Shown here one piece after another: positions 19,703 through 58,430 of a stretch of DNA of 64,000 bases (its first letter is position 1; each line of letters begins with the position of its first letter). The notes beneath the pieces were generated by a model. The model was given only the letters and a program-made list of their open reading frames with translations, was not told the origin of the DNA and did not search any database. The position numbers and the translations under genes are program-made. Origin of the DNA: a virus (taxonomy: Duplodnaviria; Heunggongvirae; Uroviricota; Caudoviricetes); IMG/VR virus record IMGVR_UViG_3300036768_001066, one strand, 5' to 3'.

Positions 19703-19713
19703 GACGAATGGAT

Positions 19714-19741: not shown

Positions 19742-19746
19742 CAATG

Positions 19747-31550: not shown

Positions 31551-31778
31551 GGTTATCTTTTTGTTTGTCAATCGGCCTAATATAGGCAAATTTTCGGGTC
31601 CGATCAGCGACGGCTGGAGATTCTTCCACCGCGTAAGTACTTAACCGGTTACAAACCCTGGGGTTTTTGGGATAATTTTTTTATGCGCGTTTCGAACTTT
31701 TGTTTCGGCCGAAGCGCCGTTTCGTCATTTTTTTTTAGGGACCCGCGACAAATGGGCGATCCGCCGGTAATAGATGGT

Positions 31779-33584
31779 ATGGTAGAATTCGAAAGGGTCA
31801 AGCTGCCCAAATACTCAATAATAATACCGACGTACAACCACTTCGAGGACTGCTTCAAGCCGTGCCTCGATTCGGTTATTACGTCGACCAAGGACCTGCT
31901 CGTATCCGGCGACGCCGAGGTGATAGTCGTGGCGAACGGCTGCACCGACGGAACCGTCGATTACGCGAGGGAGGCGCCGCATTACGCGGACGGGTATCGC
32001 ATAAGGATAGTCGAGATCGACGAGCCGCTCGGATACACCGTTGCAGTTAACATAGGGTTGGGGCTCGCCAGGGGCGAGTTCGTGGTTCTAATGAACAACG
32101 ATGCGCAGGTTCTCGAGTGGGGCAAGGACGGCAAGTGGCTCGAGATGCTCCGCGAGCCGTTTGACCTCGACCCGACCGTCGGCATCACCGGCCCAAAGAA
32201 GATAATGTCCAAGGAGACGGGCAGGCCATTCGTGATATTCTTCCTCGCCATGATAAGGCGCCGGACGTTCTATGAGATCGGATACCTTGACGAGACGTTC
32301 AACCCCGGTGGCGGAGAGGACATCGATTTCTGCATGAGGCTCGAGAAGAACGGGTACAGGTGCGTGTGTGTGCCGGACGACGGTCCGACGGCCGGCGATT
32401 ACGTCACGTCGTACCCGATCTACCACGTCGGCGAGGCGACGGTTCACTCAGAGGTGGCCGGTTGGGAGGAGAAGTTCGAGAGGCGCATGAAGCTGTTGGA
32501 GCATCGCACCAAGAATGCTTATTACGCTACGCACGCGGACGTGACCTGCTACATATCTACCAGGGGCAGGTACTTCTCAACGCTGCCGCTCGCCATAATG
32601 TCAGTGATAAACCAGAAGCTGAAGCCAAAGCGTCTGATCATATTCATGGACGACTACAACGAGAAGCCGGTCGACCTGCGCAAGTACAGCGTATACCAGC
32701 ATCTGTTCAAGATGCTCCTCGATGCCGGCATAAATTGGGACGTGGTGTTCGGCGAGGGAAAGGGTCAGGTGCTAAACCACCAGAAGGCCATCGACATGGC
32801 GGGCACCGAGTTTCTATGGAGGCTCGACGACGACAACTCCGCCGAGCCGGATGTCCTCGAGAAACTGATGGCATGCTTCGACGAAGGGGTAGGCGCCGTT
32901 GGGGGCAGCGTCCCGACTCCGGGGCAGAATGTGCCCGGCCCTTGCTCCACAAAAATATCGGAGATATGCTCGTCCAGCAACATACAGTGGTCTGTCGGAA
33001 CTGGCATTATACCGGCAGACCATCTGTACAGCACCTTCGTGTTCAGGAAGGTGGCAGCCGCGCACGGGTACTGTAAGGAGCTGTCTACAGTTGGCCACAG
33101 GGAGGAGACTATATTCACGCACGAGATGAAACGTGCGGGGTGGCAGCTCCTGATAGACCGCTCTGCCGTGACTCATCATTTGAGGGAGACCGTGGGTGGA
33201 ATACGCAGTTTCGACGATTCCAAACTATGGGAGGCCGACGAGGCCGTATTCAGGCGCAAGATGGAGGAGTGGGGGGTGAAGCTGAAGGGACGCAGATATA
33301 TCGTTCTCGATTGCGGGCTCGGAGATCACTGGAGCTTTAAGATGATTCTACCAGAGGTCAAGGCCAAGTACCCGGATGACCGCATAACCATAGCTGCGTG
33401 CTTCCCCCACGTGTTCGACGATTCCGGCGTGGATCTGATGAGCATCGCGGACGCCAAGCAGATGTTCGACGAAAAACGTATTAGCAAGATGAACGTGTAT
33501 CAGTTCGGGGTTGAAGAGAACTGGAACGGTACGTTGCTCGACGCATTCAGGGAGCTTTACGTGAAGGGGAGGGCCTGGTCATGA
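31779..33584 (+). CDS. multi-domain glycosyltransferase (GT2 domain + second GT2-like domain + C-terminal GT9/heptosyltransferase-like region)
   Basis: KYSIIIPTYNH then D-rich NNDAQV and GGGEDIDFCMRL (GT2 DxD/ED motifs). The second half has LIIFMDDYNE ... WRLDDDN. The C-terminal region has LDCGLGDHW. Start set at ATG 31779 (alternative 31752). The ORF-track start 31683 lies inside a poly-T/hairpin leader. Confidence 0.75.
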   Translation: MVEFERVKLPKYSIIIPTYNHFEDCFKPCLDSVITSTKDLLVSGDAEVIVVANGCTDGTVDYAREAPHYADGYRIRIVEIDEPLGYTVAVNIGLGLARGEFVVLMNNDAQVLEWGKDGKWLEMLREPFDLDPTVGITGPKKIMSKETGRPFVIFFLAMIRRRTFYEIGYLDETFNPGGGEDIDFCMRLEKNGYRCVCVPDDGPTAGDYVTSYPIYHVGEATVHSEVAGWEEKFERRMKLLEHRTKNAYYATHADVTCYISTRGRYFSTLPLAIMSVINQKLKPKRLIIFMDDYNEKPVDLRKYSVYQHLFKMLLDAGINWDVVFGEGKGQVLNHQKAIDMAGTEFLWRLDDDNSAEPDVLEKLMACFDEGVGAVGGSVPTPGQNVPGPCSTKISEICSSSNIQWSVGTGIIPADHLYSTFVFRKVAAAHGYCKELSTVGHREETIFTHEMKRAGWQLLIDRSAVTHHLRETVGGIRSFDDSKLWEADEAVFRRKMEEWGVKLKGRRYIVLDCGLGDHWSFKMILPEVKAKYPDDRITIAACFPHVFDDSGVDLMSIADAKQMFDEKRISKMNVYQFGVEENWNGTLLDAFRELYVKGRAWS

Positions 33585-35503
33585 TAAATGATATTGAGAG
33601 CCAGAGATGCGACAAGCCAGATCCGCCGTATTTTGCCGGACGCATTGCAATAGTCATGCCGTTCAAGAATACCAAAGACGCGGATGGCAACAGCCTAATT
33701 CTCAGGTCCGCCGCCGTGGCATTGAACCCCACCGAGATGCGCGGTCCGAACGAGATTATACTTCTCGCCATCGACGACGGAGCCACCGACGGGAGCCGGG
33801 AACTTCTCGAGAGTATCGTGCAAGAGCACACTCGGAGGCTCGTAATCCTTAATGGCAGCGGCCGCGGACCGGCCGCTGCACGAAATGTTGCACTCGAGTA
33901 CATAAGGAGTTTGGACAACACGCCGGAAGCTTTCACTCACGTGGCATTTTGTGATAGCGACGACATGTGGTTCCCATGGCACCTGGCCCGTAGCTTGCAG
34001 GCCATTGATGACGGGTATGATATGGTGTATTCGAACGTCGAGTGCGAGAACGAGAAGGGCGAGCCTTTGCAGATATTCGGCATACCGAATCCGGAGGAGT
34101 TCGATTATGAGTTGCTCAAGCAGGGCAATTATATCTTCATATCAACCGTGGTCATGAAGAGGGAGTGTATAGACGTCGGTCAGTTCTCCGAGGATGCCGT
34201 CCCGATGGAGGACTGGGAGTACTGGTTGCGCGTTGCCGCGAAGTATCGGGTCAAACACGTACACGCAAAGAAGCCGAGCATAATCTACACATGGAAGAGC
34301 ACGGGCTCGTACTATACGGCAGAGGACTCGCATGCCGCTAAATTAAGAATACAACGGAAGATGAATTTACAAGATCCAATGAATGTCGAGGGATGGCTCT
34401 CCAGGGCGGAGGGCGAGTTCCTCGCAAAAAACGCCGAGGGCCGCAGATGTATAGAGATAGGCTCGTACAAGGGCAAGAGCGCTTGTTTTATGGCGCCGAA
34501 GGCGACGAGCATCGTGTGCATAGACACGTTCAAGGCGGACAACGGCGGACAGACTCAGATGCAGTCGCTCACCACCTACGTTGATTTCGCAAGGAACACC
34601 GCGCATCTCAACAACGTCACACCGCTCATTGGTATGTCGCAGAACGTGCACCAGTTGCTGAAGAACGACGAGTTCGACTTCATATTCATAGATAGCATGC
34701 ACGATTACGAGTCGGTCATGAACGATGTAAAGAACTACCTGCCCAAGCTGAAGGACGGCGCCGTGATAATGTTTCACGACTACTTCGAGCGCGACTGGCC
34801 GGGTGTTGTCAGGTGCGTCAACGAGTTATTTGGCGGCCCTGACGAACTCGTCGATACAATAGCGAAGGTGACAGTTACCGCAGAGAGGAGGTTCGACCTC
34901 GCTATCAAGTTCGCTGGGATGACATCCAGCGTTGATACTATCCCGAGCAATGAACCAAAGTTAGAGTTGACTCCTGATGTATCGGATTTCGAGAAGGGCT
35001 CACTCGATGGTAAAGTCATAGTGATAGCCCCATGGGCTGCTAAGTTGCCGGGGATGGAAAACGCCAAGAATTACCAGGACTGGCCGGAGGTGGTTGGCAT
35101 GCTTCGCGCACTCGGCGCTTACACCATACAGGTAGGTGTTGCTGGCGAGAAGTTGGTCGGATGCGACGAAGTCATACTGAACGCGGCGCCCGATAAACTC
35201 CTAAAGATCCTCAACGCATGCGATACGTTCGTGTCGGTGGACTCGTTCTTCCCTCATTTTGCAGCGTACCACAACAAAAAAGGTGTGGTTATTTTTTCGA
35301 AGTCGGACCCAAAAATTTTTGGACATTCCATCCACCTAAACCTCTTAAAATCAAGAGAATATTTGCGCCCGGACCAGTTCAGATGGTGGCGCGATGTTGC
35401 CTTAGATAAATCAGCCTTTGTGACTCCAAATGAGGTAGTTGCGGGTGTTTTGGAAATCTTAAAAGATGCGGAAATATATACAGAGCTGCCCGAAAGAAAG
35501 TGA
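33581..35503 (+). CDS. tri-domain enzyme: GT2 glycosyltransferase, class-I SAM methyltransferase (TylF/MycF-like), GT9-like C-terminal domain
   Basis: N-terminus IAIVMPFKN...LAIDDGATDGS...DSDDMW (GT2). Middle CIEIGSYKGKSA...FDFIFIDSMHDYESV...MFHDY (Methyltransf_24-like). C-terminus VIVIAPWAAK...FVSVDSFFPHFAAY (heptosyltransferase-like). ATGA overlap with the upstream gene. Confidence 0.7.
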   Translation: MINDIESQRCDKPDPPYFAGRIAIVMPFKNTKDADGNSLILRSAAVALNPTEMRGPNEIILLAIDDGATDGSRELLESIVQEHTRRLVILNGSGRGPAAARNVALEYIRSLDNTPEAFTHVAFCDSDDMWFPWHLARSLQAIDDGYDMVYSNVECENEKGEPLQIFGIPNPEEFDYELLKQGNYIFISTVVMKRECIDVGQFSEDAVPMEDWEYWLRVAAKYRVKHVHAKKPSIIYTWKSTGSYYTAEDSHAAKLRIQRKMNLQDPMNVEGWLSRAEGEFLAKNAEGRRCIEIGSYKGKSACFMAPKATSIVCIDTFKADNGGQTQMQSLTTYVDFARNTAHLNNVTPLIGMSQNVHQLLKNDEFDFIFIDSMHDYESVMNDVKNYLPKLKDGAVIMFHDYFERDWPGVVRCVNELFGGPDELVDTIAKVTVTAERRFDLAIKFAGMTSSVDTIPSNEPKLELTPDVSDFEKGSLDGKVIVIAPWAAKLPGMENAKNYQDWPEVVGMLRALGAYTIQVGVAGEKLVGCDEVILNAAPDKLLKILNACDTFVSVDSFFPHFAAYHNKKGVVIFSKSDPKIFGHSIHLNLLKSREYLRPDQFRWWRDVALDKSAFVTPNEVVAGVLEILKDAEIYTELPERK

Positions 35504-35557
35504 GACTTTTTCGGGGATTGTTCTATAAAAAAAAACAAACAATTTTTCAGAAGAGAG

Positions 35558-38101
35558 ATGGAAGTAATCGAAACTAAAACAGAGAAAAAATCCTACAGCT
35601 ACGCTGAGGTGCTCGAGAAGGCAAAAAGCTACTTCGGTGGCGACGAGTTGGCGGCGAGTGTTTGGATTAACAAGTACGCATTGAAGGATTCCGATGGCAA
35701 CATCTACGAGCTGACCCCGGAGGACATGCACCGTAGGATTGCGTCGGAGATCGCCAGGGTCGAGGCCAAGTTCCCGAACCCTGTGAGTGAGGAAGAGTTC
35801 TTTTCTCTACTCGATAGGTTCAGGTACATAATACCTCAAGGCAGCCCGATGGCAGGTATCGGCAACAACCTGCAGAAGATTTCTTTGTCCAACTGTTTCG
35901 TGGTTGGTAACCCAGACGGAATGGGTGATTCTTACGGTGGCATCATGAGGATAGACGAGCGCATTGCACAGCTACAGAAGAGGCGTTGTGGCGTGGGCAC
36001 GGACTTGTCCGACATTAGGCCAGCGGGCACTGCCGTCAATAATGCAGCAATCACGTCCACTGGTATAGTTCCATTCATGCAGCGCTATTCGAACACAACC
36101 CGAGAGGTCGCGCAGGATGGGCGTCGTGGGGCACTTATGTTGTCCGTTTCTATCCGGCACCCGGAGTCCGAGGCTTTCATCGATGCTAAGATGGATAGCA
36201 CGAAGGTCACCGGAGCTAACGTTTCTGTGAAGATCCACGATGATTTCATGGATGCCGTACTTGCGGGCCGGATGTACAAGCAGCAGTGGCCGATATACGG
36301 CGATGGGCGCATTCACAAGGAGATCGACGCCGCTGCATTATGGAAGAAGATCATTCATAATGCGTGGAAGTCTGCGGAGCCGGGCGTTTTGTTCTGGGAT
36401 AAGATCATTAAGGAATCTCCGGCCGATTGCTATTCTGCATTCGGGTTCAGGACCGTATCTACTAACCCGTGTGGTGAGTTGCCATTATGTTCTGGCGATT
36501 CTTGCCGATTACTTGCTTTGAATCTTTATGCGTATGTTCGTAATCCGTTCACTCCGGATGCTTACTTCGATTTTGAGTTGTTCGACAAGCACGTTCGCAT
36601 AGCGCAGAGGATGATGGACAATATTGTCGAGCTTGAGCTCGAGAAGATTGATGATATTATAACCAAAATCAAATCTGATCCAGAGAGCGCAGAGATTAAG
36701 TTCAACGAGCTTTCTATGTGGGAGGAGATTCGTCAGAAGTGCGCTAATGGTCGCAGGACTGGAACTGGTGTTACGGCCGAGGGTGATATGCTTGCAGCGC
36801 TTGGACTTCGTTATGGTACAAAGGAGGCAACTGCATTTGCCGAGTCTGTGCACAAGGCACTCGCCATATCCGCATACAAGAGTTCGGCAATTATGGCGAA
36901 GGAACGCGGCGCGTTTCCTATTTATGATGAGAAGCTCGAGGTCAACAATCCGTTCTTGAACAGGCTCAAGGAAGCAGACCCGGAGTTGCGCGAATTGCTC
37001 GCCAAGTACGGTCGTAGAAATATCGCTCTGTTGACCATAGCTCCTACCGGCACTGTGTCTTTGATGACGCAGACAACGTCAGGTGTAGAGTGCGCGTTCA
37101 TGGCTGCGTACATGCGTCGTAAGAAGATCAACCCTAACGACAAGAGCGCGAGGGTCGATTTCGTTGATGAGGTCGGAGATAGCTGGGAGGAGTATAACGT
37201 GTTCCACCACCACTTCAAAACCTGGATGATTGTCAACGGATACGATCCAGATGCGGTTGCTCACATGTCTACCGAGGAGCTCAATAAAGTAATTGAGAAG
37301 TCACCTTACTACAAGGCCATGGCTAATGATGTTGACTGGGTGGAGAAGGTTAACATGCAGGGTGCGATACAGAAATGGATTGACCACTCAATATCGGTTA
37401 CGGTTAACCTGCCCAATCACGTGACGGAGGAACTCGTAAACGAGGTTTACGTCGCGGCTTGGAAGGCCGGCTGCAAGGGTTGCACCATATACAGGGACGG
37501 GTCACGTTCCGGAGTTCTTGTGGAGAAGAAGGAGAAGGAGGAGGACAAGCCTAAGGCCAAGGACAATAATGCGCCTCGCCGTCCGAAGACTCTCGAGTGC
37601 GACATTCACAGGTTCATGAACAAGGGCGAACAGTGGATAGGTTTTGTTGGGCTGTTTGATGGCAGACCTTATGAAGTGTTCACAGGTAAGGCCGAGCACA
37701 TAAAGGTGCCCGGAAAGATCGATACTGGCCGTATACGCAAAACCAAAACCGACAGTGGATCAAAGTACGACTTCATCTACGTGGACAAGGGTGAGGAAGT
37801 TGTGGTTGAGTGGTTGAACAAGTCTTTCGACCCGCATTACTGGAATTACGCCAAGATGCTGTCAGGAATTCTGAGGCATGGAATGCCCCTGCCTTATGTG
37901 GTAGATCTTATCACTTCATTGAATCTCGATGACGAGGTGATAACCACGTGGAAGGGTGGCATCCAGAGGATGATCAAGAAGTACATCCCGGACGGCACTC
38001 GGGCGACCGATAAGAAGTGCAAGGACTGCGGGTCCGAGTCTGTAATATTCCAGGAGGGGTGTTTGACCTGTACTTCGTGTGGAAGTTCGAAATGTTCGTA
38101 A
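35558..38101 (+). CDS. nrdJ: ribonucleotide reductase, class II (adenosylcobalamin-dependent, NrdJ-type) with C-terminal zinc ribbon
   Basis: Active-site NPCGE(L). IAPTGTVSLM block. 847 aa. C-terminus CKDCGSESVIFQEGCLTCTSCGSSKC (Cys4 ribbon). Confidence 0.85.
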   Translation: MEVIETKTEKKSYSYAEVLEKAKSYFGGDELAASVWINKYALKDSDGNIYELTPEDMHRRIASEIARVEAKFPNPVSEEEFFSLLDRFRYIIPQGSPMAGIGNNLQKISLSNCFVVGNPDGMGDSYGGIMRIDERIAQLQKRRCGVGTDLSDIRPAGTAVNNAAITSTGIVPFMQRYSNTTREVAQDGRRGALMLSVSIRHPESEAFIDAKMDSTKVTGANVSVKIHDDFMDAVLAGRMYKQQWPIYGDGRIHKEIDAAALWKKIIHNAWKSAEPGVLFWDKIIKESPADCYSAFGFRTVSTNPCGELPLCSGDSCRLLALNLYAYVRNPFTPDAYFDFELFDKHVRIAQRMMDNIVELELEKIDDIITKIKSDPESAEIKFNELSMWEEIRQKCANGRRTGTGVTAEGDMLAALGLRYGTKEATAFAESVHKALAISAYKSSAIMAKERGAFPIYDEKLEVNNPFLNRLKEADPELRELLAKYGRRNIALLTIAPTGTVSLMTQTTSGVECAFMAAYMRRKKINPNDKSARVDFVDEVGDSWEEYNVFHHHFKTWMIVNGYDPDAVAHMSTEELNKVIEKSPYYKAMANDVDWVEKVNMQGAIQKWIDHSISVTVNLPNHVTEELVNEVYVAAWKAGCKGCTIYRDGSRSGVLVEKKEKEEDKPKAKDNNAPRRPKTLECDIHRFMNKGEQWIGFVGLFDGRPYEVFTGKAEHIKVPGKIDTGRIRKTKTDSGSKYDFIYVDKGEEVVVEWLNKSFDPHYWNYAKMLSGILRHGMPLPYVVDLITSLNLDDEVITTWKGGIQRMIKKYIPDGTRATDKKCKDCGSESVIFQEGCLTCTSCGSSKCS

Positions 38102-38228
38102 AAATTATTCCATAATTTGTATGACCCTTACGGTGGCGGTGCTTAACGAAAAACGTGCCGCCGTCGATGAAACATCTAAGTTCTGCCTGCATATAATGAT
38201 CCAATAGTAACTTAAACCAAACGTTTCC

Positions 38229-38471
38229 ATGGAAAACAACGTTCAACAACCGGCGGCAAACAACCAGGTTCCTGAGAATCTGACGCCACAGCAAGCACTT
38301 GGTCTTCTTATCCAAGGCGTTCACTTCGCACAGTCTAAAGGAGTATACACCCTCAAGGATGCAGCTCTCCTCGACAAAGCGGTATCAGTGTTCGCTGTAG
38401 AGCAGAAGCCTGAGGCCACAGCAACTCCTGCGACAGCAGAAACAGCTCCTGTGGCAGAAGCTAAGGCTTAA
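38229..38471 (+). CDS. small conserved hypothetical protein (80 aa), Ala/Thr/Pro-rich C-terminus
   Basis: ORF with its own TATAAT box (38192-38197) and a strong downstream terminator. Confidence 0.45.
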   Translation: MENNVQQPAANNQVPENLTPQQALGLLIQGVHFAQSKGVYTLKDAALLDKAVSVFAVEQKPEATATPATAETAPVAEAKA

Positions 38472-38490
38472 GCGCCGGCTTTCAAGAAAC

Positions 38491-38524
38491 AAGCCCGATC
38501 TTAGCAGGTCGGGCTTTTCTCTTT
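38491..38524 (+). terminator. rho-independent terminator (plus strand)
   Basis: 8-bp stem AAGCCCGA / TCGGGCTT with a 10-nt loop. Followed by TTCTCTTTG. Confidence 0.65.
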
Positions 38525-38551
38525 GATATATAAGAAAACAAGAGTTCGTTA

Positions 38552-40371: not shown

Positions 40372-40380
40372 ATATAAGAT

Positions 40381-41219: not shown

Positions 41220-41229
41220 CTTTTAAATT

Positions 41230-43098: not shown

Positions 43099-43099
43099 A

Positions 43100-44755
43100 T
43101 TAGTAGAAATACTTGCTGACTATTTTGTAGTCGGCAAACTGGTTGGCAATATCAGAAAAGTCCTCCTTTACTTTGACCAAGAATGGTATGGTCGTATACA
43201 CCTTGTGACCAGGTTGTACCCTGTAGCACAGGTAATCGTCGAGCGTCATCTCCTCTCCCTTAGTGACTTCGTATATCCTCTGTAGCATGTGCTGACCGCG
43301 TATCAATACGCCGAACACTCCGAAGCAGTTGAGCGAATATACGTTATTGCCTATGTGTCTCGGGTTTGGTAGTCCGTGCCAGTGGCATCCAATGTACAGC
43401 ATTTCCCAGTCTTTGGGAACAGTGGACATTAGCTTCACGAATCTTTTGTTGAAGTCGGGCTGCAGTACAACGTCATCCTCAAACACACATATAGAATTGT
43501 GACCTTTGTCGAGCGCGTCCTTTATGGCATTGCGATGCGAACGCAGACATCCGACGGCACCTTTTATCTTGTCGCCTTGCATATCTCCGTGCCTCATGTG
43601 GTGCGTGCCCTCGATCTTCCATCCGTCCACCGCAAGCCAGCGCGTCACCTTGATGTTGTGCACGTCAAATTGCTGAGAAACCTCGAGCCATCTATCGTGC
43701 CTTCTCTCGAGGTTTATGCAGTACACTTCGTCCACCACATCGTTTAATGGACTTGGAGAAGACCCGAGTCCGAACAGAAGTTCAGGGTAGTTGAAGTACA
43801 TGAAGTCTTCGTATGATAGGAACTGCCTTATGCAGCGCTCATAGTTGTCCCTTATCGCCGGCAGCATCTTCTGGTACATATCAGGCGTCAGGGAGTTAAG
43901 CATCGTCTCGGCCTCGGCCAGGTTGTCTATCTGTATTATGCCGTTCGGATTAAAGAACTGAGCAATGGACGGGCATCCGTAGTATATCGGAACAGTGCCG
44001 GTCATGAAGCAATCTATCAGCTTCTCCGTGAAGTAATAATCCTCCTTCGTGTTCTCTATCGCAAAGGAGAACATGTAATCTTTCAAACCCTCTATCTTAT
44101 CCGGTATGTCGTTGAACCCGCGCCCGTATAAGTCAATCTTAGAGCGCAGGCGTTGCACGATTCTGTGGCGTAGATGATGTCCGCTTGTGAAGTTCTTGTT
44201 TGACGTTATCATCGACACCAGTTTGGTCTTGGGGTGCAGTCCCCAATCCTTCTCCTTTATCCAGCATGACCCGCCCGGAACAAACTTGAACCTGACAGGA
44301 TCGGAGTCGAGCAATGATCGCTTGAACGTAAATACCTTGTTGAACTGCGTTGCATTCTGAGCAAGCCACCCATACTCGTCTGTTGTTATCTCTGGTGACT
44401 CAATCATCCATGCGTACTTAGTCTTGCCGTTAAACATCCCGTGATTCTTGATGCTCGCATCCGTCATGAACACATAGTTGTACGCGTTAACGTTACGATC
44501 CCAGTCGAAATAACGTCTGTCGTCCGGCACGTGCCCGAACAGAGTGTCGGCAAGCGGCACCTTCTTCTTAGTTGCCGGCGGGGTTAGCGGAGCCGGCAAG
44601 CTGCCGACTACCTGCTCTGGCTTGAAATCATCCAAATCCTCCTGGCTGACTGGTGATTGTGGTGTGCTCACTTCTTCTTGTTTTTGTTGCTGGTTCAGTT
44701 TCTTCTGTACAAAATGTACCAACTTGCTTTTGTACTGTTTGCTGAAATATCCCAT
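43100..44755 (-). CDS. bifunctional glycosyltransferase: N-terminal GT10-like (alpha-1,3-fucosyltransferase motifs) + C-terminal GT25 domain
   Basis: FAIENTKEDYYFTEKLIDCFMTGTVPIYYG matches the FucT FxxEN...TEK motifs. C-terminal VYCINLERRHDRW ... GAVGCLRSH ... VFEDDVVL matches GT25 (LPS glycosyltransferase) hallmarks. Confidence 0.65.
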   Translation of the reverse strand: MGYFSKQYKSKLVHFVQKKLNQQQKQEEVSTPQSPVSQEDLDDFKPEQVVGSLPAPLTPPATKKKVPLADTLFGHVPDDRRYFDWDRNVNAYNYVFMTDASIKNHGMFNGKTKYAWMIESPEITTDEYGWLAQNATQFNKVFTFKRSLLDSDPVRFKFVPGGSCWIKEKDWGLHPKTKLVSMITSNKNFTSGHHLRHRIVQRLRSKIDLYGRGFNDIPDKIEGLKDYMFSFAIENTKEDYYFTEKLIDCFMTGTVPIYYGCPSIAQFFNPNGIIQIDNLAEAETMLNSLTPDMYQKMLPAIRDNYERCIRQFLSYEDFMYFNYPELLFGLGSSPSPLNDVVDEVYCINLERRHDRWLEVSQQFDVHNIKVTRWLAVDGWKIEGTHHMRHGDMQGDKIKGAVGCLRSHRNAIKDALDKGHNSICVFEDDVVLQPDFNKRFVKLMSTVPKDWEMLYIGCHWHGLPNPRHIGNNVYSLNCFGVFGVLIRGQHMLQRIYEVTKGEEMTLDDYLCYRVQPGHKVYTTIPFLVKVKEDFSDIANQFADYKIVSKYFY

Positions 44756-44756
44756 G

Positions 44757-45374
44757 TTATTTTAGTTTCCAATTTTCCCAAACAAAATCGTAATTGTATG
44801 TAAGTACGTGTGTCCTTGATAGGCGTGTCCTTATAGCGTCCCTGCGCTGCTGGCACTCCGGATAAAACGTATGGAATTGTACTTGAATATTATCGAGCTT
44901 CAAAAGTTCATCTGTAGTCAGGCAGTCAAGTAGGTCGTATTCGGCGCCCTCTATGTTTATCTTTATCAGGTCCACCTTCTGTATGTTTGCGAGGAACTCG
45001 TGCACCGAGTCTATAGTTATAGGCACCTTCTCGTCGCCCTCCGCGAACATGCCCGATCCATCTGCCGACATCGTTATGGTTGCATCGCTTTTCTCGTGAC
45101 CGAGCGCGGTCTGGTAAACGTGCACCTTTGGGCTGTTGGCGAACATCGCTTTGATGTTCTGGCAGAACGAGGCCACTGGCTCGAACACGTGTATCGTGCA
45201 TCCGTACATGTCGCTGATGGTCTTACCCCATTTGCCCTCGTACCCGCCGAGATCGATGACTACAGAATCCTGCGTTAGCGCATAGTTTACCCTGTGCGTC
45301 TGGTCTCCCCTGTTGTCGAACCACCTTCGTATCTCCGACATGAAGTGGTTGTGTAGCTGTTCTGGTGTCATCAT
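44757..45374 (-). CDS. FkbM-family methyltransferase
   Basis: VVIDLGGYEGKW and DLIKINIEGAEYDLL (FkbM signature). Confidence 0.65.
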   Translation of the reverse strand: MMTPEQLHNHFMSEIRRWFDNRGDQTHRVNYALTQDSVVIDLGGYEGKWGKTISDMYGCTIHVFEPVASFCQNIKAMFANSPKVHVYQTALGHEKSDATITMSADGSGMFAEGDEKVPITIDSVHEFLANIQKVDLIKINIEGAEYDLLDCLTTDELLKLDNIQVQFHTFYPECQQRRDAIRTRLSRTHVLTYNYDFVWENWKLK

Positions 45375-45892
45375 AGTTTTGCGACTAAAATATCATTCGG
45401 TATGTGTCCGTCCTCGTACGAGAATTTGTATCCTTCATTTATTTGTAGGATTTTCTCCTTTATGTCGTTCTCTCCGAACTTGATCTCCGGGTCCTCTACC
45501 TGCCAGCAGCGCATATCGTCCACGAGAATTATGTGGTTCTTGATGCCGTGCCGCTGGATCTGCTCGAACTCCTCTATGAGCGGGCAGTTCTTCTTGCCGT
45601 ACGCAGTCTCACCGGCGGACCAGTGCCCGTCGAGCCAGAACGTTATGGGAGTATCGACATCCTTTATCGCATCGTATAGCACGTCGGCGGAGTCGCCCTG
45701 CACTATCTTGACGTTTGGATTATCCTTGAATCTTGCAACGCAGTGGTTGTAGAATTTCTCGGACAGCTCTATAGATATGACCCTTTTGAACCCGGCGTCA
45801 AGCGCCCCTTGTATACCATCACCCATGTAAGAACCCGTTTCTACGAGGCAGGGATTTAGGTATTTCTTGAATGTATCTTTCTTTATTGGCAT
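45371..45892 (-). CDS. class-I SAM-dependent methyltransferase-like protein
   Basis: Motif I LVETGSYMGDG. Acidic motif ILVDD. Start set at internal ATG 45892 to avoid overlap with the upstream gene. Confidence 0.5.
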   Translation of the reverse strand: MPIKKDTFKKYLNPCLVETGSYMGDGIQGALDAGFKRVISIELSEKFYNHCVARFKDNPNVKIVQGDSADVLYDAIKDVDTPITFWLDGHWSAGETAYGKKNCPLIEEFEQIQRHGIKNHIILVDDMRCWQVEDPEIKFGENDIKEKILQINEGYKFSYEDGHIPNDILVAKL

Positions 45893-45906
45893 AGTATATT
45901 TATTCT

Positions 45907-46650
45907 TTATATTTTTGACCAGTTCTCTGGCAACAAGTCCTTTGTATCGAGGTTGTCGTACGCAGGTCCGAACCATTTGCCAGGCGCTATAACTCGTTTG
46001 TTGGGGTTTTTATTAAGGTACGCGCCCCACCAGCTGAAGCTCGAGTTTGCTATGACGTTGTGCTTGCACTTGGACATCAACATCAGGTCGTATACGTCCG
46101 GGTGCTGCTCGTCTACAAAAACAAACTTATTACCTACAAAATTCTCCCTACACCAGTTTATATCGTCAGAGAATATGACAAACGTACAATCACCCATCAC
46201 CTCCATAGCCCTGGTGTAATATGCCATGGGCATGACCGGATGGTGTTGCGACAGATTCACATAGTCCGTCCTCCTTATATGCAAAGAACAGGTATTGTCT
46301 CCGAACGATGCCGCGAGCGCGTCTATTTTTTCGGCGTGCTCTGGCTTTAGCTCGAAGTACCCGAGAGCCTCCTCTTTGTACTTGTCGAAGTACCGCCATG
46401 ACTGCAGGTATCCTACAATATCAAAGATGCCCTCGCCGACCTTTATCTCGCCGTAATGAAACCCTACCTCGTCCACCTTCGTAGCCGGCACTATTCCGGC
46501 AGGGAGCTCTTTTTTCATGTAGTGTGAGTACTTCCACTCTGGGAATATGTATTCGTGTCCGTTGGCGCGAGCTATTCCAATAACGGATGCTATCTGGAAC
46601 ATCTGGTTGCCGAGGCGGCCGTATTTGCCGAGATTGCTGAATGTTATCAT
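45907..46650 (-). CDS. alpha-1,2-fucosyltransferase (GT11 family)
   Basis: Canonical GT11 motif I GRLGNQMFQIAS at the N-terminus. HIRRTDY motif. C-terminal SSFSWWGAYL motif. Confidence 0.8.
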   Translation of the reverse strand: MITFSNLGKYGRLGNQMFQIASVIGIARANGHEYIFPEWKYSHYMKKELPAGIVPATKVDEVGFHYGEIKVGEGIFDIVGYLQSWRYFDKYKEEALGYFELKPEHAEKIDALAASFGDNTCSLHIRRTDYVNLSQHHPVMPMAYYTRAMEVMGDCTFVIFSDDINWCRENFVGNKFVFVDEQHPDVYDLMLMSKCKHNVIANSSFSWWGAYLNKNPNKRVIAPGKWFGPAYDNLDTKDLLPENWSKI

Positions 46651-47552
46651 AGACCTCTAATGTATTTCTTAGTTTTATCGTCAAGCTCTCCAGTTATGTC
46701 CATGCCGTTATCCGATTGCCACTGTATTATGGCCGCTCTTGTCTGTTCGTCGTATACACCAGTGCAGGACACGTTCATGCCGAGATGTATCATTCGGTTT
46801 TGCATTATTATTATATCGGTGTTACAGTCTCCGAACTTTGGGATGTATTCTGAAGGTTGTTCGTACGGGTAGAACTTGTAGTACGAATTGTTTATTATGC
46901 CGTCATCGTCCGGGTAGAAGTGGAAGTAGTCCCACGCGTATAATTTTTTAATTCGTTCAACCTGCTCCGGGAATGGGACGTACGAGTCCTTGTCAGATAT
47001 GTTCTCCCTGAAGTCCGGAACGTTTGTGCCGAGGATCTGGTTTATTCGTGGTATGACAGGGCCGTCTTCTATCCGCAGTATGTGGTTGAACCGGTCCCTT
47101 ATCGGTCCTTTGTGGCAGTTGTGGTTGTCCGGAAACAGGCACTGCAGATTTAGATGGTGCTCTATATTGGAGTCCATGTCCCGTTCTTCCAGAAACCTCA
47201 GCAGGTCCTCCATCCGCTCAATCTTGTGTTTGTTCAGGTTTGTCACACCGAGCACTTCAAGAACAGAATGGTTCAAAACCGACACAAGTCTGTCCACTGG
47301 GTTGCGGGTCACGAGGATGCTTACGTAGTCCTTTAAATTTTCGTCGTTGGATATTTTGAACGGGATTTCTATGTAGGGTACGACCATGTGCACCCTGTTG
47401 GAGGGCAGAGAAACCCCGTTGCCGTTTATCAATGCCACGTGCGAGTAGGTATCGCGGTCGACGAAGTAGAACCAGTTTTTGAGAGACGTGCAGGCGCACC
47501 TCGCGTTCCAGTACAGTATGAATTTTCTATTGCCGTTTATCAGTGGATACAT
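46647..47552 (-). CDS. sulfotransferase-like domain fused to a C-terminal peptidoglycan-binding (PG_binding_1-like) domain
   Basis: ILVTRNPVDRLVS matches the sulfotransferase 3'-phosphate-binding motif (RxPxxRxxS). C-terminus TGVYDEQTRAAIIQWQSDNGMDITGELDDKTKKYI matches the PG-binding helix repeats. Start at ATG 47552 overlapping the upstream stop (TAATG). Confidence 0.5.
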   Translation of the reverse strand: MYPLINGNRKFILYWNARCACTSLKNWFYFVDRDTYSHVALINGNGVSLPSNRVHMVVPYIEIPFKISNDENLKDYVSILVTRNPVDRLVSVLNHSVLEVLGVTNLNKHKIERMEDLLRFLEERDMDSNIEHHLNLQCLFPDNHNCHKGPIRDRFNHILRIEDGPVIPRINQILGTNVPDFRENISDKDSYVPFPEQVERIKKLYAWDYFHFYPDDDGIINNSYYKFYPYEQPSEYIPKFGDCNTDIIIMQNRMIHLGMNVSCTGVYDEQTRAAIIQWQSDNGMDITGELDDKTKKYIRGL

Positions 47553-48172
47553 TATTGTCCTGGAGGTTTCATTAGTCTGGTGTAGTCCATATATGCGTTC
47601 TGTATGTCGCTGTGCCCCGGCTTCTGCCACGCTATGCTCGGATTGAACACGTAGCAGTTGTGTGTTTTCTGAAAATCGGTATACGTGACGTCTATCTGGG
47701 ATTTGAACTTCTCCACCTCTGCTATCACCTCGGCCGCCATCTTCTTGGTTATGCCGTAGTGGCTCGTCGTGTACGTCCTAACTATCTTGGACACATTTTG
47801 CGTCACCGGTATCGGGTGGGCTATGTGGTTGCCCCCGAGATACAGCATGTCCCAATCGGCAGGCACCTGACCGATCCATTGGTGGAACTGGGCCGGCGCG
47901 TGCACGGAGAACTCTATGTCGTCCTCGAGGATCAGAATCCTCTCCCATCCCTCGTGCAGCATTCTCTTTAGAATGGTGGTGTGACTTAGCGAACACCCGA
48001 CTTCGCCAGGCGTTATTGCACAGTTTGGCGGCAATGCAATGGTGCTTCCGTCGACTGCGGAGAACCGTACGACGTCGATGCCGGCCTGCTCGAATTCCTT
48101 CAGGCACAGTTCCCATTTGTCAGTACGCTTATCAAGGTTGACGCAGAATATCTTGTCGAAGTACTTATTCAT
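47552..48172 (-). CDS. GT25-family glycosyltransferase
   Basis: IFCVNLDKRTDKW ... EVGCSLSHTTIL ... ILEDDIEF, typical of the GT25 family. Confidence 0.7.
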   Translation of the reverse strand: MNKYFDKIFCVNLDKRTDKWELCLKEFEQAGIDVVRFSAVDGSTIALPPNCAITPGEVGCSLSHTTILKRMLHEGWERILILEDDIEFSVHAPAQFHQWIGQVPADWDMLYLGGNHIAHPIPVTQNVSKIVRTYTTSHYGITKKMAAEVIAEVEKFKSQIDVTYTDFQKTHNCYVFNPSIAWQKPGHSDIQNAYMDYTRLMKPPGQ

Positions 48173-48482
48173 CTTTGTCTTTTATTCTTTTTATCAGATC
48201 CACCATTTTATTGACCGTATCAAAGTTCTCCGGTATCGCGAGAGCGTCCGGCACCTGTATGTCGAACTCATTCTCTATGAACACCAGCACGACCACCATC
48301 GAAAACGAGTCGATGTATCCGCCGTTTATCAGTGACGTATCATAATTGACATCGAACAAATCGTTGCACGTACACTTCTCAAATGGAGCATAGCAGTACG
48401 AGTAGTGGTGCCTCCTGTTTTCGCTGCGGTCTTGACTACCGAATTCTTTCTTTATGTAGTTAAGGATTATATCCTTCATCAC
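48165..48482 (-). CDS. acyl/aminoacyl carrier protein-like (ACP/DltC-like)
   Basis: GGYIDSFSMVVVLVFIENEFDIQVPD resembles the ACP helix-II motif with a DSxS phosphopantetheine site. Four-helix-length C-terminal 70 aa. N-terminal 35-aa extension is atypical. Confidence 0.45.
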   Translation of the reverse strand: MMKDIILNYIKKEFGSQDRSENRRHHYSYCYAPFEKCTCNDLFDVNYDTSLINGGYIDSFSMVVVLVFIENEFDIQVPDALAIPENFDTVNKMVDLIKRIKDKDE

Positions 48483-49063
48483 ACTATATTATTTTTTACG
48501 AACTCCCTTATGTACACAGGGTCTTGTATGTGTATCATGTTGTCGCTAAGTTCCTTCTGAAGGAACCCGTATTTGTCCGCATAATCATTGTAAACATCCA
48601 CAAATAAGAAATCGTTGGCGCCACACAGTTCTTTGTACCTTTCGTTCATGTACCTTATGTACTCTGCGCGCTCCGCATCTTCCCCATAAAATGGGAAATC
48701 CACGTTCTCTTTAGCATCCGCCTTCCTGAGGGTCGGAGGGATGTTGTACACCATGACCTTCACCCCTGGCATCTTTTCGATGTTGGCATTTATGGCCTCG
48801 AAGTAATTTTTTGCGATACTGTCCATCAGCATCCTGCTGCTCGACCTGAATTTGCCTATGTGGCACCTGCAGTCTATCTCTCCGAACGAGAAGCATACGT
48901 AATCGCCGGGCGCCACATTGAACCTCGGCTCGGATATATCCAGTATCTCCAATTTCTTACGGCCGAAACTCTGCGCCGTTATCGGTCCTATCCTGTTTGT
49001 AGAAACCCCCTCGATCTGGTCCCAGGCGAACCAAGCGTGACTATCTCCGAACGTATGAATCAT
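48479..49063 (-). CDS. SGNH/GDSL-family hydrolase or acyltransferase
   Basis: Block I IHTFGDSHAW (GDS-H) at the N-terminus. About 190 aa, typical of single-domain SGNH proteins. Immediately downstream of the carrier-protein gene. Confidence 0.5.
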   Translation of the reverse strand: MIHTFGDSHAWFAWDQIEGVSTNRIGPITAQSFGRKKLEILDISEPRFNVAPGDYVCFSFGEIDCRCHIGKFRSSSRMLMDSIAKNYFEAINANIEKMPGVKVMVYNIPPTLRKADAKENVDFPFYGEDAERAEYIRYMNERYKELCGANDFLFVDVYNDYADKYGFLQKELSDNMIHIQDPVYIREFVKNNIV

Positions 49064-49997
49064 TAGTTACCAGGTTTTTAATTTTGTCCGCCATGTGGTT
49101 CCACGTATAGTTGCGGTGAACCAGTTCGCAACCTGCCTGCGATATTCTTATCCTCTCGTCCTTGTTCCTCTCGTCAAGGTAGTATTCTATAAGTTCATCG
49201 AGTTCATCCAAATCGTGCCATACTCTTATATTGATCTTGTCTTCAAAATCGAGTTCTATGCCGGGGTACCACTTAGACAAGCACAGTGCCCCGCTGCCCA
49301 TTAGGCGTAGCATGCGGTCTGATGTGTACCTGAGCGCGTCGAAGTGTGACACGTTTATGGCCACCTTAGAGCTCCTGTAGCACTCGGCCTCCTTGGCCTC
49401 CCTGTACATGAAGTTACGCATGTCGTTACCCCACCCGAATCCGTACACTCCGAAATTTGTACCGTACTTGGACGACAGCGTGTTGACCATCTTGATTCTA
49501 TAGTCTGCCAGGGGGAAATCGTAGTCTTCCTTTGGGTAGTTGTTGCCCATGAAAACTATCTGTGGGTATTCTCCCACGCCACCGTCTGGCCTGAATATAT
49601 CATCGTTGAATCCGCTCTGGATGAACTCGGCGTTCATGCCGAGGGCGCGCATGAACATAACATCCTCATCGTTGGTGAACGCGGTTACGTCCACGGACCT
49701 CCCACAATCAATCATCCACTGAGGCGTAAGTTTTCGAAAGTCCCAGGTCCAGTTCACCTTAAACCCCGGTAGCTTGGCGAGCACCTCCGGCGTGTAGACA
49801 CCCGGTGATTGCACGTGCAGGAATATCAGGTCTGGTTTGAACCGCTCGGCCGTCTCTAACGTCTTCGCGTGAAGAGCCGCCGTGTTGTTGGGCACGGAGG
49901 TCCACAGAGTCCAGTCGAGGAACAGGTATTCGCTCGATGCGTCCGATAACGCCTTGCAGAGTGCGGGTACGGTAAATCCTATGTGCAGGGTCCTCAT
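49041..49997 (-). CDS. glycosyltransferase (CgeB/GT4-like C-terminal domain)
   Basis: About 320 aa. C-terminal half with ...VAINVSHFDALRYTSDRMLRLMGSGALCL... resembles CgeB-type GT-B domains. First gene of the minus-strand glycan block. Confidence 0.5.
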   Translation of the reverse strand: MRTLHIGFTVPALCKALSDASSEYLFLDWTLWTSVPNNTAALHAKTLETAERFKPDLIFLHVQSPGVYTPEVLAKLPGFKVNWTWDFRKLTPQWMIDCGRSVDVTAFTNDEDVMFMRALGMNAEFIQSGFNDDIFRPDGGVGEYPQIVFMGNNYPKEDYDFPLADYRIKMVNTLSSKYGTNFGVYGFGWGNDMRNFMYREAKEAECYRSSKVAINVSHFDALRYTSDRMLRLMGSGALCLSKWYPGIELDFEDKINIRVWHDLDELDELIEYYLDERNKDERIRISQAGCELVHRNYTWNHMADKIKNLVTNDSYVRR

Positions 49998-50004: not shown

Positions 50005-50086
50005 TAAGTTATGGCTTTTATTATATACTGCTCACCAAATAAGTTACGGCTTTTATTATATACTGCTCACCAAACATTAAGTTTTA
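50005..50086. repeat. 35-bp tandem direct repeat (2.3 copies) in a divergent intergenic region
   Basis: TAAGTTA[T/C]GGCTTTTATTATATACTGCTCACCAAA at 50005-50039 and 50040-50074, then a partial CATTAAGTTTTA. It lies between the divergently oriented gene blocks, with starts at 49997 (minus) and 50138 (plus). Confidence 0.75.
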
Positions 50087-53251: not shown

Positions 53252-53310
53252 ATTGGTGAGAATATATAATAGTAAGGACCGCAAAGGACCCGAAATTAAA
53301 TATTTTAACC

Positions 53311-57109: not shown

Positions 57110-57110
57110 G

Positions 57111-58424: not shown

Positions 58425-58430
58425 TAAATC

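Follow-up and report, generated by a model that had tools for sequence, protein, structure and literature searches.

What could a phage decorate with an 18-kb island of genes for the synthesis and tailoring of glycans? This question is raised by a 64-kb stretch of DNA (hereafter the window) from the tailed phage recorded in IMG/VR as IMGVR_UViG_3300036768_001066, in which such an island of ~18 kb lies at positions 31683-49997. The enzymes of the island are a soluble set: no transmembrane helix or signal peptide was found in any island protein. As judged from comparison with related phage contigs, the island appears to consist of an ancestral, lineage-conserved and ordered core that is vertically inherited, with a variable periphery. 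In our tentative reading, to which we assign a rough probability of 0.42, the acceptor of the glycan is made by the phage itself (the virion or a small protein), which is slightly favoured over a remodelling of the host envelope. This preference is based on the conservation of the core across phages from different habitats, on the solubility of every island enzyme, on the position of the island next to the virion module with a promoter-like element in common, on the occurrence of the C-terminal modules of its first two proteins (p1 and p2) in the tail region of a small siphophage, and on precedents in chloroviruses, mimiviruses, mycobacteriophages and phage XacN1. The conserved core moreover argues for a conserved acceptor.

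The island holds 20 open reading frames (ORFs) of at least 80 aa, ten on the plus strand (31683-42458) and ten on the minus strand (42448-49997), an ORF listing that agrees with the gene calls on an identical public contig for the shared part. Profile searches covered the island ORFs and roughly 35 larger flanking ORFs, a subset of all ORFs of the window; verdicts on Pfam families rest on the curated bit-score cut-offs, and matches below the cut-off are called weak. The genes, among them those for glycosyltransferases (GTs), S-adenosylmethionine (SAM)-type methyltransferases and a carrier resembling acyl carrier proteins (ACPs), are the following.

31683-33584 (+): p1, 633 aa, two GT2 (GT-A) domains and a C-terminal extension of ~95 aa
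33581-35503 (+): p2, 640 aa, GT2 domain, Methyltransf_24 domain and a weakly GT9-like C-terminal domain
35558-38101 (+): large subunit of a ribonucleotide reductase (RNR) of class II type, inside the island (Pfam, 5e-84)
38229-38471 (+): conserved 80-aa protein; the alignment shows a helical core and a tail that varies and is rich in Ala/Pro/Thr/Glu
38552-39688 (+): ATP-grasp amino-acid/amide ligase of YheC/D and 'sugar-transfer-associated' type (Pfam, 2e-9 and 5e-9; phrog_2599)
39685-40371 (+): 228-aa probable GT-A glycosyltransferase with motifs 'IPTRGDR...' and 'EDDDWY'
40381-41219 (+): broken GIY-YIG/NUMOD3 homing endonuclease (Pfam), two ORFs in different frames
41230-42012 (+): 260-aa GT-A glycosyltransferase of a family without Pfam model, recognised by AlphaFold2 (AF2) and Foldseek
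42003-42458 (+): small GSGD/poly-Lys protein, 151 aa, candidate acceptor or adaptor, its start overlapping the stop of the 260-aa GT-A gene
42448-43098 (-): FkbM methyltransferase, variable gene (Pfam, 6e-11)
43100-44755 (-): GT10 + GT25 fusion (Pfam, 8e-13 for GT10 and 1e-12 for GT25)
44757-45374 (-): FkbM methyltransferase (Pfam, 1e-8)
45371-45976 (-): possible SAM methyltransferase, 201 aa, weak and variable (matches at E 0.03-0.06 only)
45907-46650 (-): GT11, alpha-1,2-fucosyltransferase family (Pfam PF01531, 3e-24)
46647-47552 (-): Sulfotransfer_2 domain fused to a C-terminal PG_binding_1 domain (Pfam, 2e-7 and 5e-10; phrog_3347)
47552-48172 (-): GT25 glycosyltransferase, core gene present in all relatives (Pfam, 2e-15)
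48165-48482 (-): DltC-like carrier protein (NCBIfam DltC, 2e-9, and ACP models, all below their cut-offs)
48479-49063 (-): SGNH/GDSL-like protein, variable gene (Pfam, 3e-6; 28.2 bits against a cut-off of 32.9)
49041-49997 (-): CgeB-like GT-B protein (Glyco_trans_1_2; Pfam, 2e-18), core, first gene of the minus arm

An original prediction, made from the bare sequence, had counted 23 genes here, sixteen of them glycan-related. The first number comes down to the 20 ORFs listed and the second is borne out, as profile, motif and structure evidence places 15-16 of the 20 in this class. Nine GT domains are solid (three GT2, two GT25, GT10, GT11, the CgeB-like one and the GT-A shown by structure), with up to 11 if two weak ones are included; next to these there are three to four methyltransferases, the sulfotransferase, the ATP-grasp ligase, the DltC-like carrier and the SGNH-like protein. 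The predicted GT families were thus recovered, except that the GT9-like assignment stays below its cut-off. Likewise, the two FkbM domains and Methyltransf_24 were recognised and the other class-I methyltransferase (45371-45976) is weak (E >= 0.03), and the sulfotransferase and the ATP-grasp ligase exceed cut-offs that the ACP-like carrier and the SGNH protein both miss. Since most domains score above curated cut-offs and the family motifs are present, the predicted repertoire of fucosyl-, methyl- and sulfotransferases is real and not a product of chance matches.

Two of the GT domains belong to families of fucosyltransferases. The GT11 protein scores 86.4 bits against a cut-off of 23.9 (phrog_2644, 3e-66), shows the motifs 'GRLGNQMFQ' and 'HIRRTDY' in its translation and is 33-38% identical to cyanophage genes, some of which are annotated as alpha-1,2-fucosyltransferase; a PDB sequence and profile search gave no match for it. 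The GT10 domain (PF00852), which is of the alpha-1,3-fucosyltransferase type, reaches 48.9 bits (cut-off 23.9), matches Helicobacter pylori FucT in the PDB at 1e-11, and has in its translation the motif FSFAIENTKEDYYFTEK, which fits the family motif FxxxFENxxxxxYxTEK. The GT25 half of the same fusion finds COLGALT1 and mimivirus R655 in the PDB, and the two GT25 domains of the island (PF01755) score 48.9 and 57.5 bits (cut-off 24), with 'FEDDV' and 'LEDDI' as acidic motifs. In p1, PF00535 matches over two stretches (4e-27), with a PglI-like match at residues 300-405 and the K4 chondroitin polymerase as best PDB match (6e-8), and homologues of p1 are present in the related contigs L042 and L045 (see below). 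In p2, the GT2 domain (Pfam, 1e-12) is followed by a Methyltransf_24 domain of the sugar O-methyltransferase type (3e-19), and the C-terminus scores 16.5-19.1 bits with GT9 (cut-off 22) through the C-terminal motif only. Membership of a GT family does not fix donor, linkage, acceptor or branching, and the 'branched' architecture of the original prediction is hence not readable from these assignments.

Two further proteins of the plus arm are GT-A enzymes or probably so. The 228-aa protein scores 18 bits with GT2 (cut-off 23) and found no match in a PDB sequence search; it is kept in all five syntenic relatives. The 260-aa protein had no Pfam, NCBIfam, PHROG or PDB sequence match. Its AF2 model is very confident (predicted local distance difference test score, pLDDT, of 95.3), and a Foldseek search with this model retrieved CgT, SunS/ThuS, TarS/TarP and SpsA at E-values of 3e-8 to 1e-6; the protein carries 'DVDE' as DxD motif. 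The family it belongs to counts at least 388 protein clusters at ~50% identity, none of which has a Pfam domain. A bacterial homologue lies in Pseudovibrio japonicus (L057, 7231-15254) in a cluster of rmlB-rmlD-rmlA, the GT-A gene, Sulfotransfer_3, GT4, RgpF and GT2, which looks like a candidate locus for a sulfated rhamnan.

Of the tailoring enzymes, the two FkbM proteins score 43.3 and 35.7 bits with PF05050 (cut-off 22.7); with TIGR01444 (cut-off 37.7), the one at 44757-45374 reaches 54.2 bits and the one at 42448-43098 stays just below with 36.3 bits, and the latter has a homologue only in L035 among the relatives. Homologues of the 201-aa gene at 45371-45976 occur in L038 and in cyanophage clusters. 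The ATP-grasp ligase matches cyanophycin synthetase, Ddl and TTL in the PDB. The sulfotransferase domain (PF03567) scores 31.6 bits (cut-off 22) and shows 'ARCACTS' and 'RNPVDRLVS' in its translation. Across 16 homologues the 3'-phosphate-binding pattern RxPxxRxxS is invariant (R83, P85, R88, S91) and the 'R-C-A-C-T-S' loop, for binding of the 5'-phosphosulfate, is conserved with an Arg replacing the usual Lys; a PDB sequence and profile search returned no match. The PG_binding_1 fusion is limited to the sub-clade P0001-P0004, the other homologues being stand-alone proteins of ~200 aa. An origin of this domain by capture from the Amidase_2 endolysin beside the island of relatives was considered and rejected, as there is no similarity between the two and the window has no amidase homologue. 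The carrier contains an 'IDSFS' serine and scores below the cut-offs of both PP-binding PF00550 (17.5 bits against 20.8) and DltC (37 against 68); no homologue of it was found in any relative, so it is unique to this phage. The neighbouring SGNH-like protein has an N-terminal 'FGDSH', is absent from L035 and finds a 35% match in L038.

Elsewhere in the window lie two regions with a possible relation to tailoring. At 15850-17091 (-), a 413-aa ORF coincides with a local peak in GC content (0.62) and consists almost entirely of hexapeptide (left-handed beta-helix) repeats; its best matches, all below cut-offs, are acyl- and acetyltransferases of the LpxD, NeuD and LpxA type. These repeats would suit either a further sugar acyltransferase or a beta-helix with a structural role. 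An ABC importer-like pair is found at 18081-19744 (-), together with 20142-21491 (-); it consists of an ATPase (ABC_tran, 1e-25) and a BPD_transp_1-type permease, and an upstream 449-aa ORF without matches could be its binding protein. The importer at 18081-19744 is the only transporter among the ORFs scanned, and the best sub-threshold NCBIfam matches of the pair are to systems for sulfonate/taurine (TauC, TauB), SaoA/SaoP, phosphonate and sulfate (CysA). It is speculative that this pair feeds sulfur towards 3'-phosphoadenosine 5'-phosphosulfate (PAPS) for the sulfotransferase.

With such a set of enzymes, a complete pathway had been proposed for the island. This is not supported by the content of the window: the Pfam and NCBIfam scan of the window revealed no genes for the synthesis of GDP-fucose or other nucleotide sugars, none for PAPS synthesis and no phosphopantetheinyl transferase or other carrier-loading enzyme, and among the island and the ~35 larger flanking ORFs there was no priming phosphoglycosyltransferase, flippase, polymerase, ligase or exporter. 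Neither did any island protein give a Pfam match to the families of Gtr-type seroconversion (membrane flippase, bactoprenol GT, integral GT).

The relatives of the island (numbered L), which are related contigs recovered by exact-protein look-ups and scans of viral contigs, show which part of it is inherited. The ordered core recurs at about 40-90% identity in L035, L038, L042, L043 and L045, which stem from different samples. According to the presence/absence table, this core comprises p1, p2, the RNR, the 80-aa protein, the ATP-grasp ligase, the 228-aa and 260-aa GT-A proteins, the GSGD protein, the CgeB-like GT, GT25, GT11 and the GT25-containing fusion, whereas the first FkbM gene, the 201-aa gene, the sulfotransferase, the SGNH protein, the carrier and the nucleotide-sugar genes are variable. 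In L035-L037 the island is found at 66-98% protein identity; missing there are the homing endonuclease, the 201-aa methyltransferase-like gene and the pair of carrier and SGNH genes. L038 (35-72% identity) has all genes on one strand, in the order RNR, 81-aa protein, ATP-grasp, two GT-A genes, radical SAM, small protein, CgeB-like GT and GT25, and then a stand-alone sulfotransferase, GT11, two ORFs, FkbM, GT10/GT25, Amidase_2 and guanylate kinase; compared with L038, L043 and L045, the window has its minus arm inverted. The closest large relative, L042 (part of a 482-kb contig), encodes p1-like and p2-like proteins, RNR, a small protein, ATP-grasp, GT-A genes, a second small protein, a 685-aa CgeB-like GT and FkbM, and also Gmd (E 1e-109), a DegT-like aminotransferase and a hexapeptide acetyltransferase beside GT11 and GT25. 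The contigs L043, L044 and L045 contribute additional genes: L044 a dTDP-sugar set, L045 an Fcl-like gene, and the three taken together GT6, GT10, WecB, a cytidylyltransferase and a sulfotransferase. As GT11 lies within four genes of Gmd in L042 and directly after the Fcl-like gene in L045, a GDP-6-deoxyhexose donor fits this enzyme. Phages PAU, pT24 and Lak do not have the island, of which a single gene, that for the 260-aa GT-A, is represented in Lak (Lak-A1) at 27% identity; LR745206 and LR756500 have the RNR without GT genes, with ATP-grasp in LR756500.

Among the core genes, the one for the GSGD protein is of particular relevance for the acceptor. It is present in L035, L038, L042, L043 and L045 (with a product of 57-98 aa outside this phage), always follows the 260-aa GT-A gene, and encodes in order 'TEDGE', a Gly/Ala/Pro linker, the invariant motif 'PGMGxP...R..GSGDV.S', a poly-Lys run and an amphipathic end, with G111, P115, G124, S125, G126 and D127 as invariant residues. 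None of its 39 homologues, which measure 50-98 aa, is fused to another domain. The AF2 model has low confidence and is mostly coil, compatible with disorder, and the protein is predicted to be largely disordered. A second small protein, of 80 aa and without Pfam match, is always encoded immediately upstream of the ATP-grasp gene and could be a substrate or partner of this ligase.

The C-terminal parts of p1 and p2 offer a link to a smaller phage. Residues 287-627 of p1 resemble gp25 of the Methylophilaceae phage P19250A (38% identity), and residues 479-620 of p2 resemble gp26 of the same phage (41% identity). In P19250A (L046, a 38.7-kb siphophage), gp25 and gp26 are adjacent (5992-7400) and directly follow the annotated tape-measure gene. 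From this adjacency it follows that the two modules travel together, and they may form one split enzyme, as far as their sequences indicate; a virtual profile fusing both C-termini, made with a split GT9-like GT-B in mind, matched heptosyltransferase II at E = 0.71 only.

The island is further connected to the neighbouring virion module, which includes a gene for a 577-aa protein (53311-55044), by promoter-like elements. The following elements are involved.

38491-38516 (+): terminator-like hairpin of 11 pairs with a T-rich tail, splitting the plus arm into two transcription units
38527-38535 (+): promoter-like TATATAAGA, directly after this strong hairpin and 17 nt upstream of the ATP-grasp start
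50011-50078 (-): tandem duplication of ~35 bp x 2, each copy with TTGGTGAGCAGTATATAATA, at 22 and 57 nt before the start codon of the minus arm
53253-53271 (+): composite element TTGGTGAG-AA-TATATAATA, 40 nt upstream of the 577-aa virion-module gene

TATATAA[GT]A occurs at four sites in the 64 kb, all intergenic and 17-57 nt upstream of start codons: one before the ATP-grasp operon, two before the minus arm and one before the 577-aa gene. All three exact TATATAATA sites in the window have TTGGTGAG 2-3 nt upstream, so that the minus arm and the 577-aa gene have the full 17-nt element TTGGTGAG-N2-3-TATATAATA in common; before the minus arm this composite motif is found twice, where 0.13 would be expected by chance. 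In L035, elements of the TATATAA type are found at all three of these places, and in L038 and L042 they stand ahead of island operons; the position of the one upstream of ATP-grasp is kept in L035, L038 and L042. A promoter-like element common to the island and a virion-module gene suggests, at the level of the sequence, that both are co-regulated. A scan with the sigma-70 consensus was uninformative (34 sites against 22 +/- 5.5 expected).

That the island belongs to a phage, as predicted, is clear from the phage genes on both flanks and from structural genes that match those of jumbo phages. The flanks encode a T4-type RNA ligase, an AAA ATPase, a phosphoribosyl pyrophosphate (PRPP) synthetase, a DnaB-like helicase, SbcC/D-like proteins, a guanylate kinase, a gp5/gp27-like baseplate hub, a Thg1-like enzyme and a NUDIX protein, and the island adjoins the baseplate/virion module. 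The 577-aa protein, for which no PDB, Pfam or PHROG match was found, has homologues at 32-40% identity in PAU, pT24/PTm1/PTm5, MA9V, MaF61, Lak megaphages and LR756500, where they sit among neck, sheath and baseplate genes (e.g. in PTm1 and MaF61). The phage is a megaphage related to PAU, the Tenacibaculum phages and the Lak phages, with a contig of at least 374 kb. Its host is probably a member of the Bacteroidota; the hosts in the names of the related phages are Sphingomonas (PAU), Tenacibaculum (pT24/PTm1/PTm5), Chryseobacterium (MA9V) and Flavobacterium (MaF61). The phage looks lytic, and the window ORFs scanned were free of integrase and repressor domains. When the island was compared by megablast with 50,697 phage records, nothing matched. 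Two flanking genes stand apart from these subjects: the Thg1-like tRNA-His guanylyltransferase at 61037-61846 (+) (phrog_4717, 2.5e-88) is found in a window without tRNA gene, and the 573-aa protein encoded at 12221-13942 (-) carries at its N-terminus a TPM-phosphatase domain (7e-35), an unusual feature for a phage.

The RNR, the homing endonuclease and a single strand switch (at 42448-42458) had been noticed within the island from the start, and all three were confirmed. The RNR is 40% identical over its full length to genes of crAss-like phages annotated as B12-dependent RNR, and its position is kept in L035, L038, L042 and L045. In the 462-kb huge phage LR756500.1 (L094, 20001-24127) the RNR homologue matches in two pieces ~1.6 kb apart, which suggests the insertion of an intein or intron. 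The homing endonuclease is a recent insertion. It sits precisely at the junction of two GT genes that are contiguous in the relatives, and it is absent from L035, L038 and L042; with a GC content of 0.31 and a GC content at third codon positions (GC3) of 0.25, it differs from its neighbours (about 0.49 and 0.63). The FGKQHSVETKKIISDANKG peptide is coded twice at its frame break, which indicates a short tandem duplication.

Could the island nevertheless be an artefact, that is, a bacterial polysaccharide locus joined to phage DNA by mis-assembly, or one captured very recently from the host? Its enzymes belong to families characteristic of polysaccharide loci in bacteria, and the GC content of p1 is somewhat higher (0.56). 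However, the identical island with the same flanks is present both in a 373,759-bp contig of the Joint Genome Institute (JGI) and in an independent Logan assembly (SRR11727984), and a syntenic arrangement recurs in at least five related phage contigs. The island genes have GC contents of 0.43-0.56 and GC3 values of 0.43-0.75, within the range of the flanking genes, the homing endonuclease being the sole outlier. The second assembly, the matching composition and the phage genes (RNR, homing endonuclease) inside the island effectively exclude a mis-assembled or fresh host locus, an origin by which the original prediction would have fallen.

If the acceptor is made by the phage, the enzymes would act in the cytoplasm on nucleotide sugars, SAM and PAPS supplied by the host, to which in the relatives phage-made sugars would contribute. 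Leloir-type GTs would build up an oligosaccharide stepwise, which would be fucosylated, O-methylated, sulfated and possibly aminoacylated, on virion proteins and/or on the disordered small protein with its invariant G-S-G-D serine encoded beside the GT-A gene. The decorations would comprise methyl and sulfate groups, an amide-linked amino acid (by the ATP-grasp ligase) and, in this phage, an acyl or aminoacyl ester (by the carrier and the SGNH protein), while variable outer enzymes would diversify the exposed end of the glycan. The phage particle might then carry a glycan coat or glycoconjugate, like those of chloroviruses, mimivirus fibrils and glycosylated mycobacteriophages. The tight linkage of the GSGD protein to the GT-A gene and its predicted disorder speak for this reading, acceptor peptides usually being disordered. 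An elaborated version, in which the 260-aa GT-A primes the GSGD serine, the CgeB-like, GT25, GT11 and GT10 enzymes extend the chain, methyl-, sulfo- and acyltransferases cap it, and operons using the promoter-like element of a virion gene yield a sulfated and fucosylated, proteoglycan-like molecule that is made in the cytoplasm and coats or accompanies the virion, we regard as unlikely, though somewhat less so than the two remaining functions weighed last below.

Several observations weigh against a phage-made acceptor. Bacterial homologues of the island enzymes sit in cell-surface polysaccharide clusters, annotations of GT25, GT9, GT10 and GT11 derive mostly from lipopolysaccharide (LPS) and lipooligosaccharide (LOS) enzymes, which are also soluble or peripheral, and both the PG_binding_1 domain and the DltC-like/SGNH pair are suggestive of the cell envelope. 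The 577-aa protein is placed in the virion module by synteny only. The promoter-like motif contains a plain TATAAT and looser, degenerate versions of it precede a helicase gene, for which reason its reading as a 'late promoter' was downgraded; the upstream half of the composite element is moreover not conserved in L035. The likeness of GSGD to acceptor sites, as we take it to be, is a match of four residues, and the acceptor is read from its context, in a window covering 64 kb out of at least 374 kb. Apart from these points, when the five virion-module proteins encoded at 53311-59204 were searched, as had been proposed, for the sequon of O-glycosylation in Bacteroidota, D(S/T)(A/I/L/V/M/T), this gave counts of 2, 1, 1, 0 and 0 against shuffle means of 0.6-1.4, hence no enrichment; because this O-glycosylation system is periplasmic, the test is of doubtful relevance here.

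The target had been left open by the original prediction, and the two leading readings indeed stand close. Remodelling of the host envelope, which we consider a tentative possibility and somewhat less probable than a phage-made acceptor, would have the soluble GTs act at the inner membrane face on lipid-linked intermediates of LPS, LOS, O-antigen or capsule, with export by the flippase and ligase of the host; the altered surface could block superinfection, mask a receptor or change recognition by grazers during long or pseudolysogenic infections. The closest matches in isolated phages are indeed the GT11/GT10/GT25/methyltransferase clusters of S-SCSM2R, S-SSM7, S-SRM01 and P-SSM2, and the literature reads such cyanophage 'LPS clusters' as host-surface modification, although this role is a hypothesis there. 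Islands of relatives hold O-antigen-type nucleotide-sugar pathways, the variable outer genes resemble O-antigen diversity, and the bacterial homologue of the 260-aa GT-A in its rmlBDA-sulfotransferase-GT4-RgpF-GT2 polysaccharide cluster points to the envelope as do the PG_binding_1 fusion and the DltC-like carrier. On the other hand, the island has no Gtr-like, Wzx, Wzy, WaaL or priming gene and no membrane protein, a GT core conserved across habitats fits poorly with hypervariable host acceptors, the lytic appearance of the phage (with no integrase or repressor among the part of the ORFs scanned) does not favour it, and the promoter-like element is common to a virion-module gene and not to replication genes.

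Two other functions are far less probable. A soluble product, that is, a glycoconjugate (a glycopeptide, a glycolipid or a secondary metabolite) that is free or linked to a small molecule and acts on the host or on competitors, seems improbable to us: the ATP-grasp, carrier, SGNH and (in L038) radical-SAM genes resemble natural-product logic, and the pairing of a small peptide with a SunS/ThuS-like GT-A is reminiscent of glycocin clusters, but the carrier, SGNH and radical-SAM genes lie outside the conserved core, genes for a leader-peptide protease, for export and for immunity are all missing, and the fold match of the 260-aa protein with SunS is a generic GT-A one (template modelling score, TM-score, of about 0.5). 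For such a product it can be added that a review on jumbo phages proposes secondary-metabolite clusters in cyanophages. Hypermodification of DNA, in which some or all of the GTs would decorate hydroxymethylated bases of the phage DNA with an oligosaccharide against restriction, is very improbable. The island is interleaved with nucleotide metabolism, with the RNR inside and guanylate kinase, NUDIX and PRPP synthetase genes beside it, but the window ORFs scanned comprise no thymidylate-synthase-like hydroxymethylase, TET/JBP-type dioxygenase, C5-methyltransferase or T4-type DNA GT. We know of no fucosyl (GT10/GT11) or sulfo modification of DNA. In the literature, phage GT-A and GT-B enzymes can build DNA glycans and the DNA of PAU is reported to be extensively modified; yet PAU, like pT24 and Lak, lacks the island genes, and a published study on phage DNA glycans leaves fucose and GT2 unmentioned and ties its GTs to C5-methyltransferase, 5mYOX and thymidylate-synthase neighbours.

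Our preference for a phage-made acceptor can also be set against systems already described. Chloroviruses (PBCV-1 Vp54) and Mimiviridae build fucosylated, methylated virion glycans in the cytoplasm by means of soluble multi-domain GT and GT-methyltransferase enzymes, and their glycan clusters include rare-sugar pathways and differ between clades. The GT25 half of the island fusion matches mimivirus R655, as mentioned; these are however giant viruses of eukaryotes, their sequence link to the island is limited to shared families, and the phage is known from its genes alone. In H. pylori, a GT25 beta-1,4-galactosyltransferase (GalT), GT10 FutA/B and GT11 FutC make Lewis-type epitopes of Gal-GlcNAc and fucose. 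The island likewise brings GT25, GT10 and GT11 together, with a GT10 that matches FucT structures and contains the FucT motif, but the acceptor in H. pylori is the lipid-linked O-antigen, and the donor, linkage and acceptor of the island enzymes do not follow from shared families alone. Seroconversion by temperate phages (gtrABC, Oac, Wzy inhibitors) requires a GtrA flippase, GtrB, an integral GT, an acyltransferase-3 and lysogeny; glycan genes on a phage are what the island shares with it, and none of these membrane or lysogeny features is found in the island. In mycobacteriophages, phage GTs are reported to modify the phage's own capsid or tail proteins (Freeman et al. 2023), and the jumbo phage XacN1 has glycoproteins in its virion and encodes GTs; these systems have 1-4 GTs and are not described with methyl, sulfo or acyl tailoring, against ~10 GT domains with tailoring enzymes in the island.

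The kind of locus is already known, as glycan clusters in large phages have been recorded since the first cyanomyovirus genomes, so that the novelty implied by the original prediction was overstated. The 'LPS' clusters of the cyanomyoviruses P-SSM2, S-SSM7, S-SRM01, S-SCSM1 and S-SCSM2R likewise combine GT11, GT10, GT25, GT2, FkbM and other methyltransferases, their GT11, GT10, GT25 and methyltransferase genes sharing 29-39% identity with those of the island; they hold up to 13 GTs in one phage and vary in gene content between relatives. Jumbo-phage 'LPS-capsule modification' clusters were reviewed by Iyer et al. 2021, with a host-surface product as hypothesis, and the island corresponds to their description in being contiguous, in joining several GT families with tailoring enzymes and in being polymorphic among relatives. 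The sulfotransferase family is already in PHROGs, and orthologous groups of GTs are core genes of the 'moraphages', another jumbo-phage lineage linked to Bacteroidota. The island differs from the cyanophage clusters in its PAU/Lak-related lineage with a contig of at least 374 kb, in its syntenic core with RNR, ATP-grasp, two Pfam-less GT-A proteins and the GSGD/poly-Lys protein, in the fusions GT2-GT2, GT2-methyltransferase and GT10-GT25, and in the sulfotransferase-PG_binding_1 fusion and the DltC-like carrier. Conversely, cyanophage clusters carry epimerases, UGDH and similar genes, whereas the window has no nucleotide-sugar genes (its relatives L042, L044 and L045 do). New are the phage lineage, the ordered inherited core with variable periphery, the widespread Pfam-less GT-A family with the linked GSGD/poly-Lys protein, the sulfotransferase-PG_binding_1 fusion, the strain-specific carrier/SGNH module and the promoter-like element in common with a virion gene.

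The same set of enzymes as in cyanophage clusters is thus present in an unrelated megaphage lineage, beside a virion module, at a time when the usual explanation of phage glycan clusters by host LPS and superinfection exclusion is a hypothesis in the literature. The island offers two concrete handles on this issue, namely a widespread GT-A family without Pfam model and a tightly linked disordered protein with an invariant serine. If the host envelope is the target, the island would be a further, well-defined example of surface remodelling by a lytic phage. If the target is the virion, particles of aquatic and gut phages may carry self-made fucosylated or sulfated coats, with consequences for their adsorption and stickiness, for grazing and for immune recognition. 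Should the proteoglycan-like molecule exist, it would provide a virion-directed function for the unexplained 'LPS clusters' of cyanophages and would concern a large clade of megaphages.

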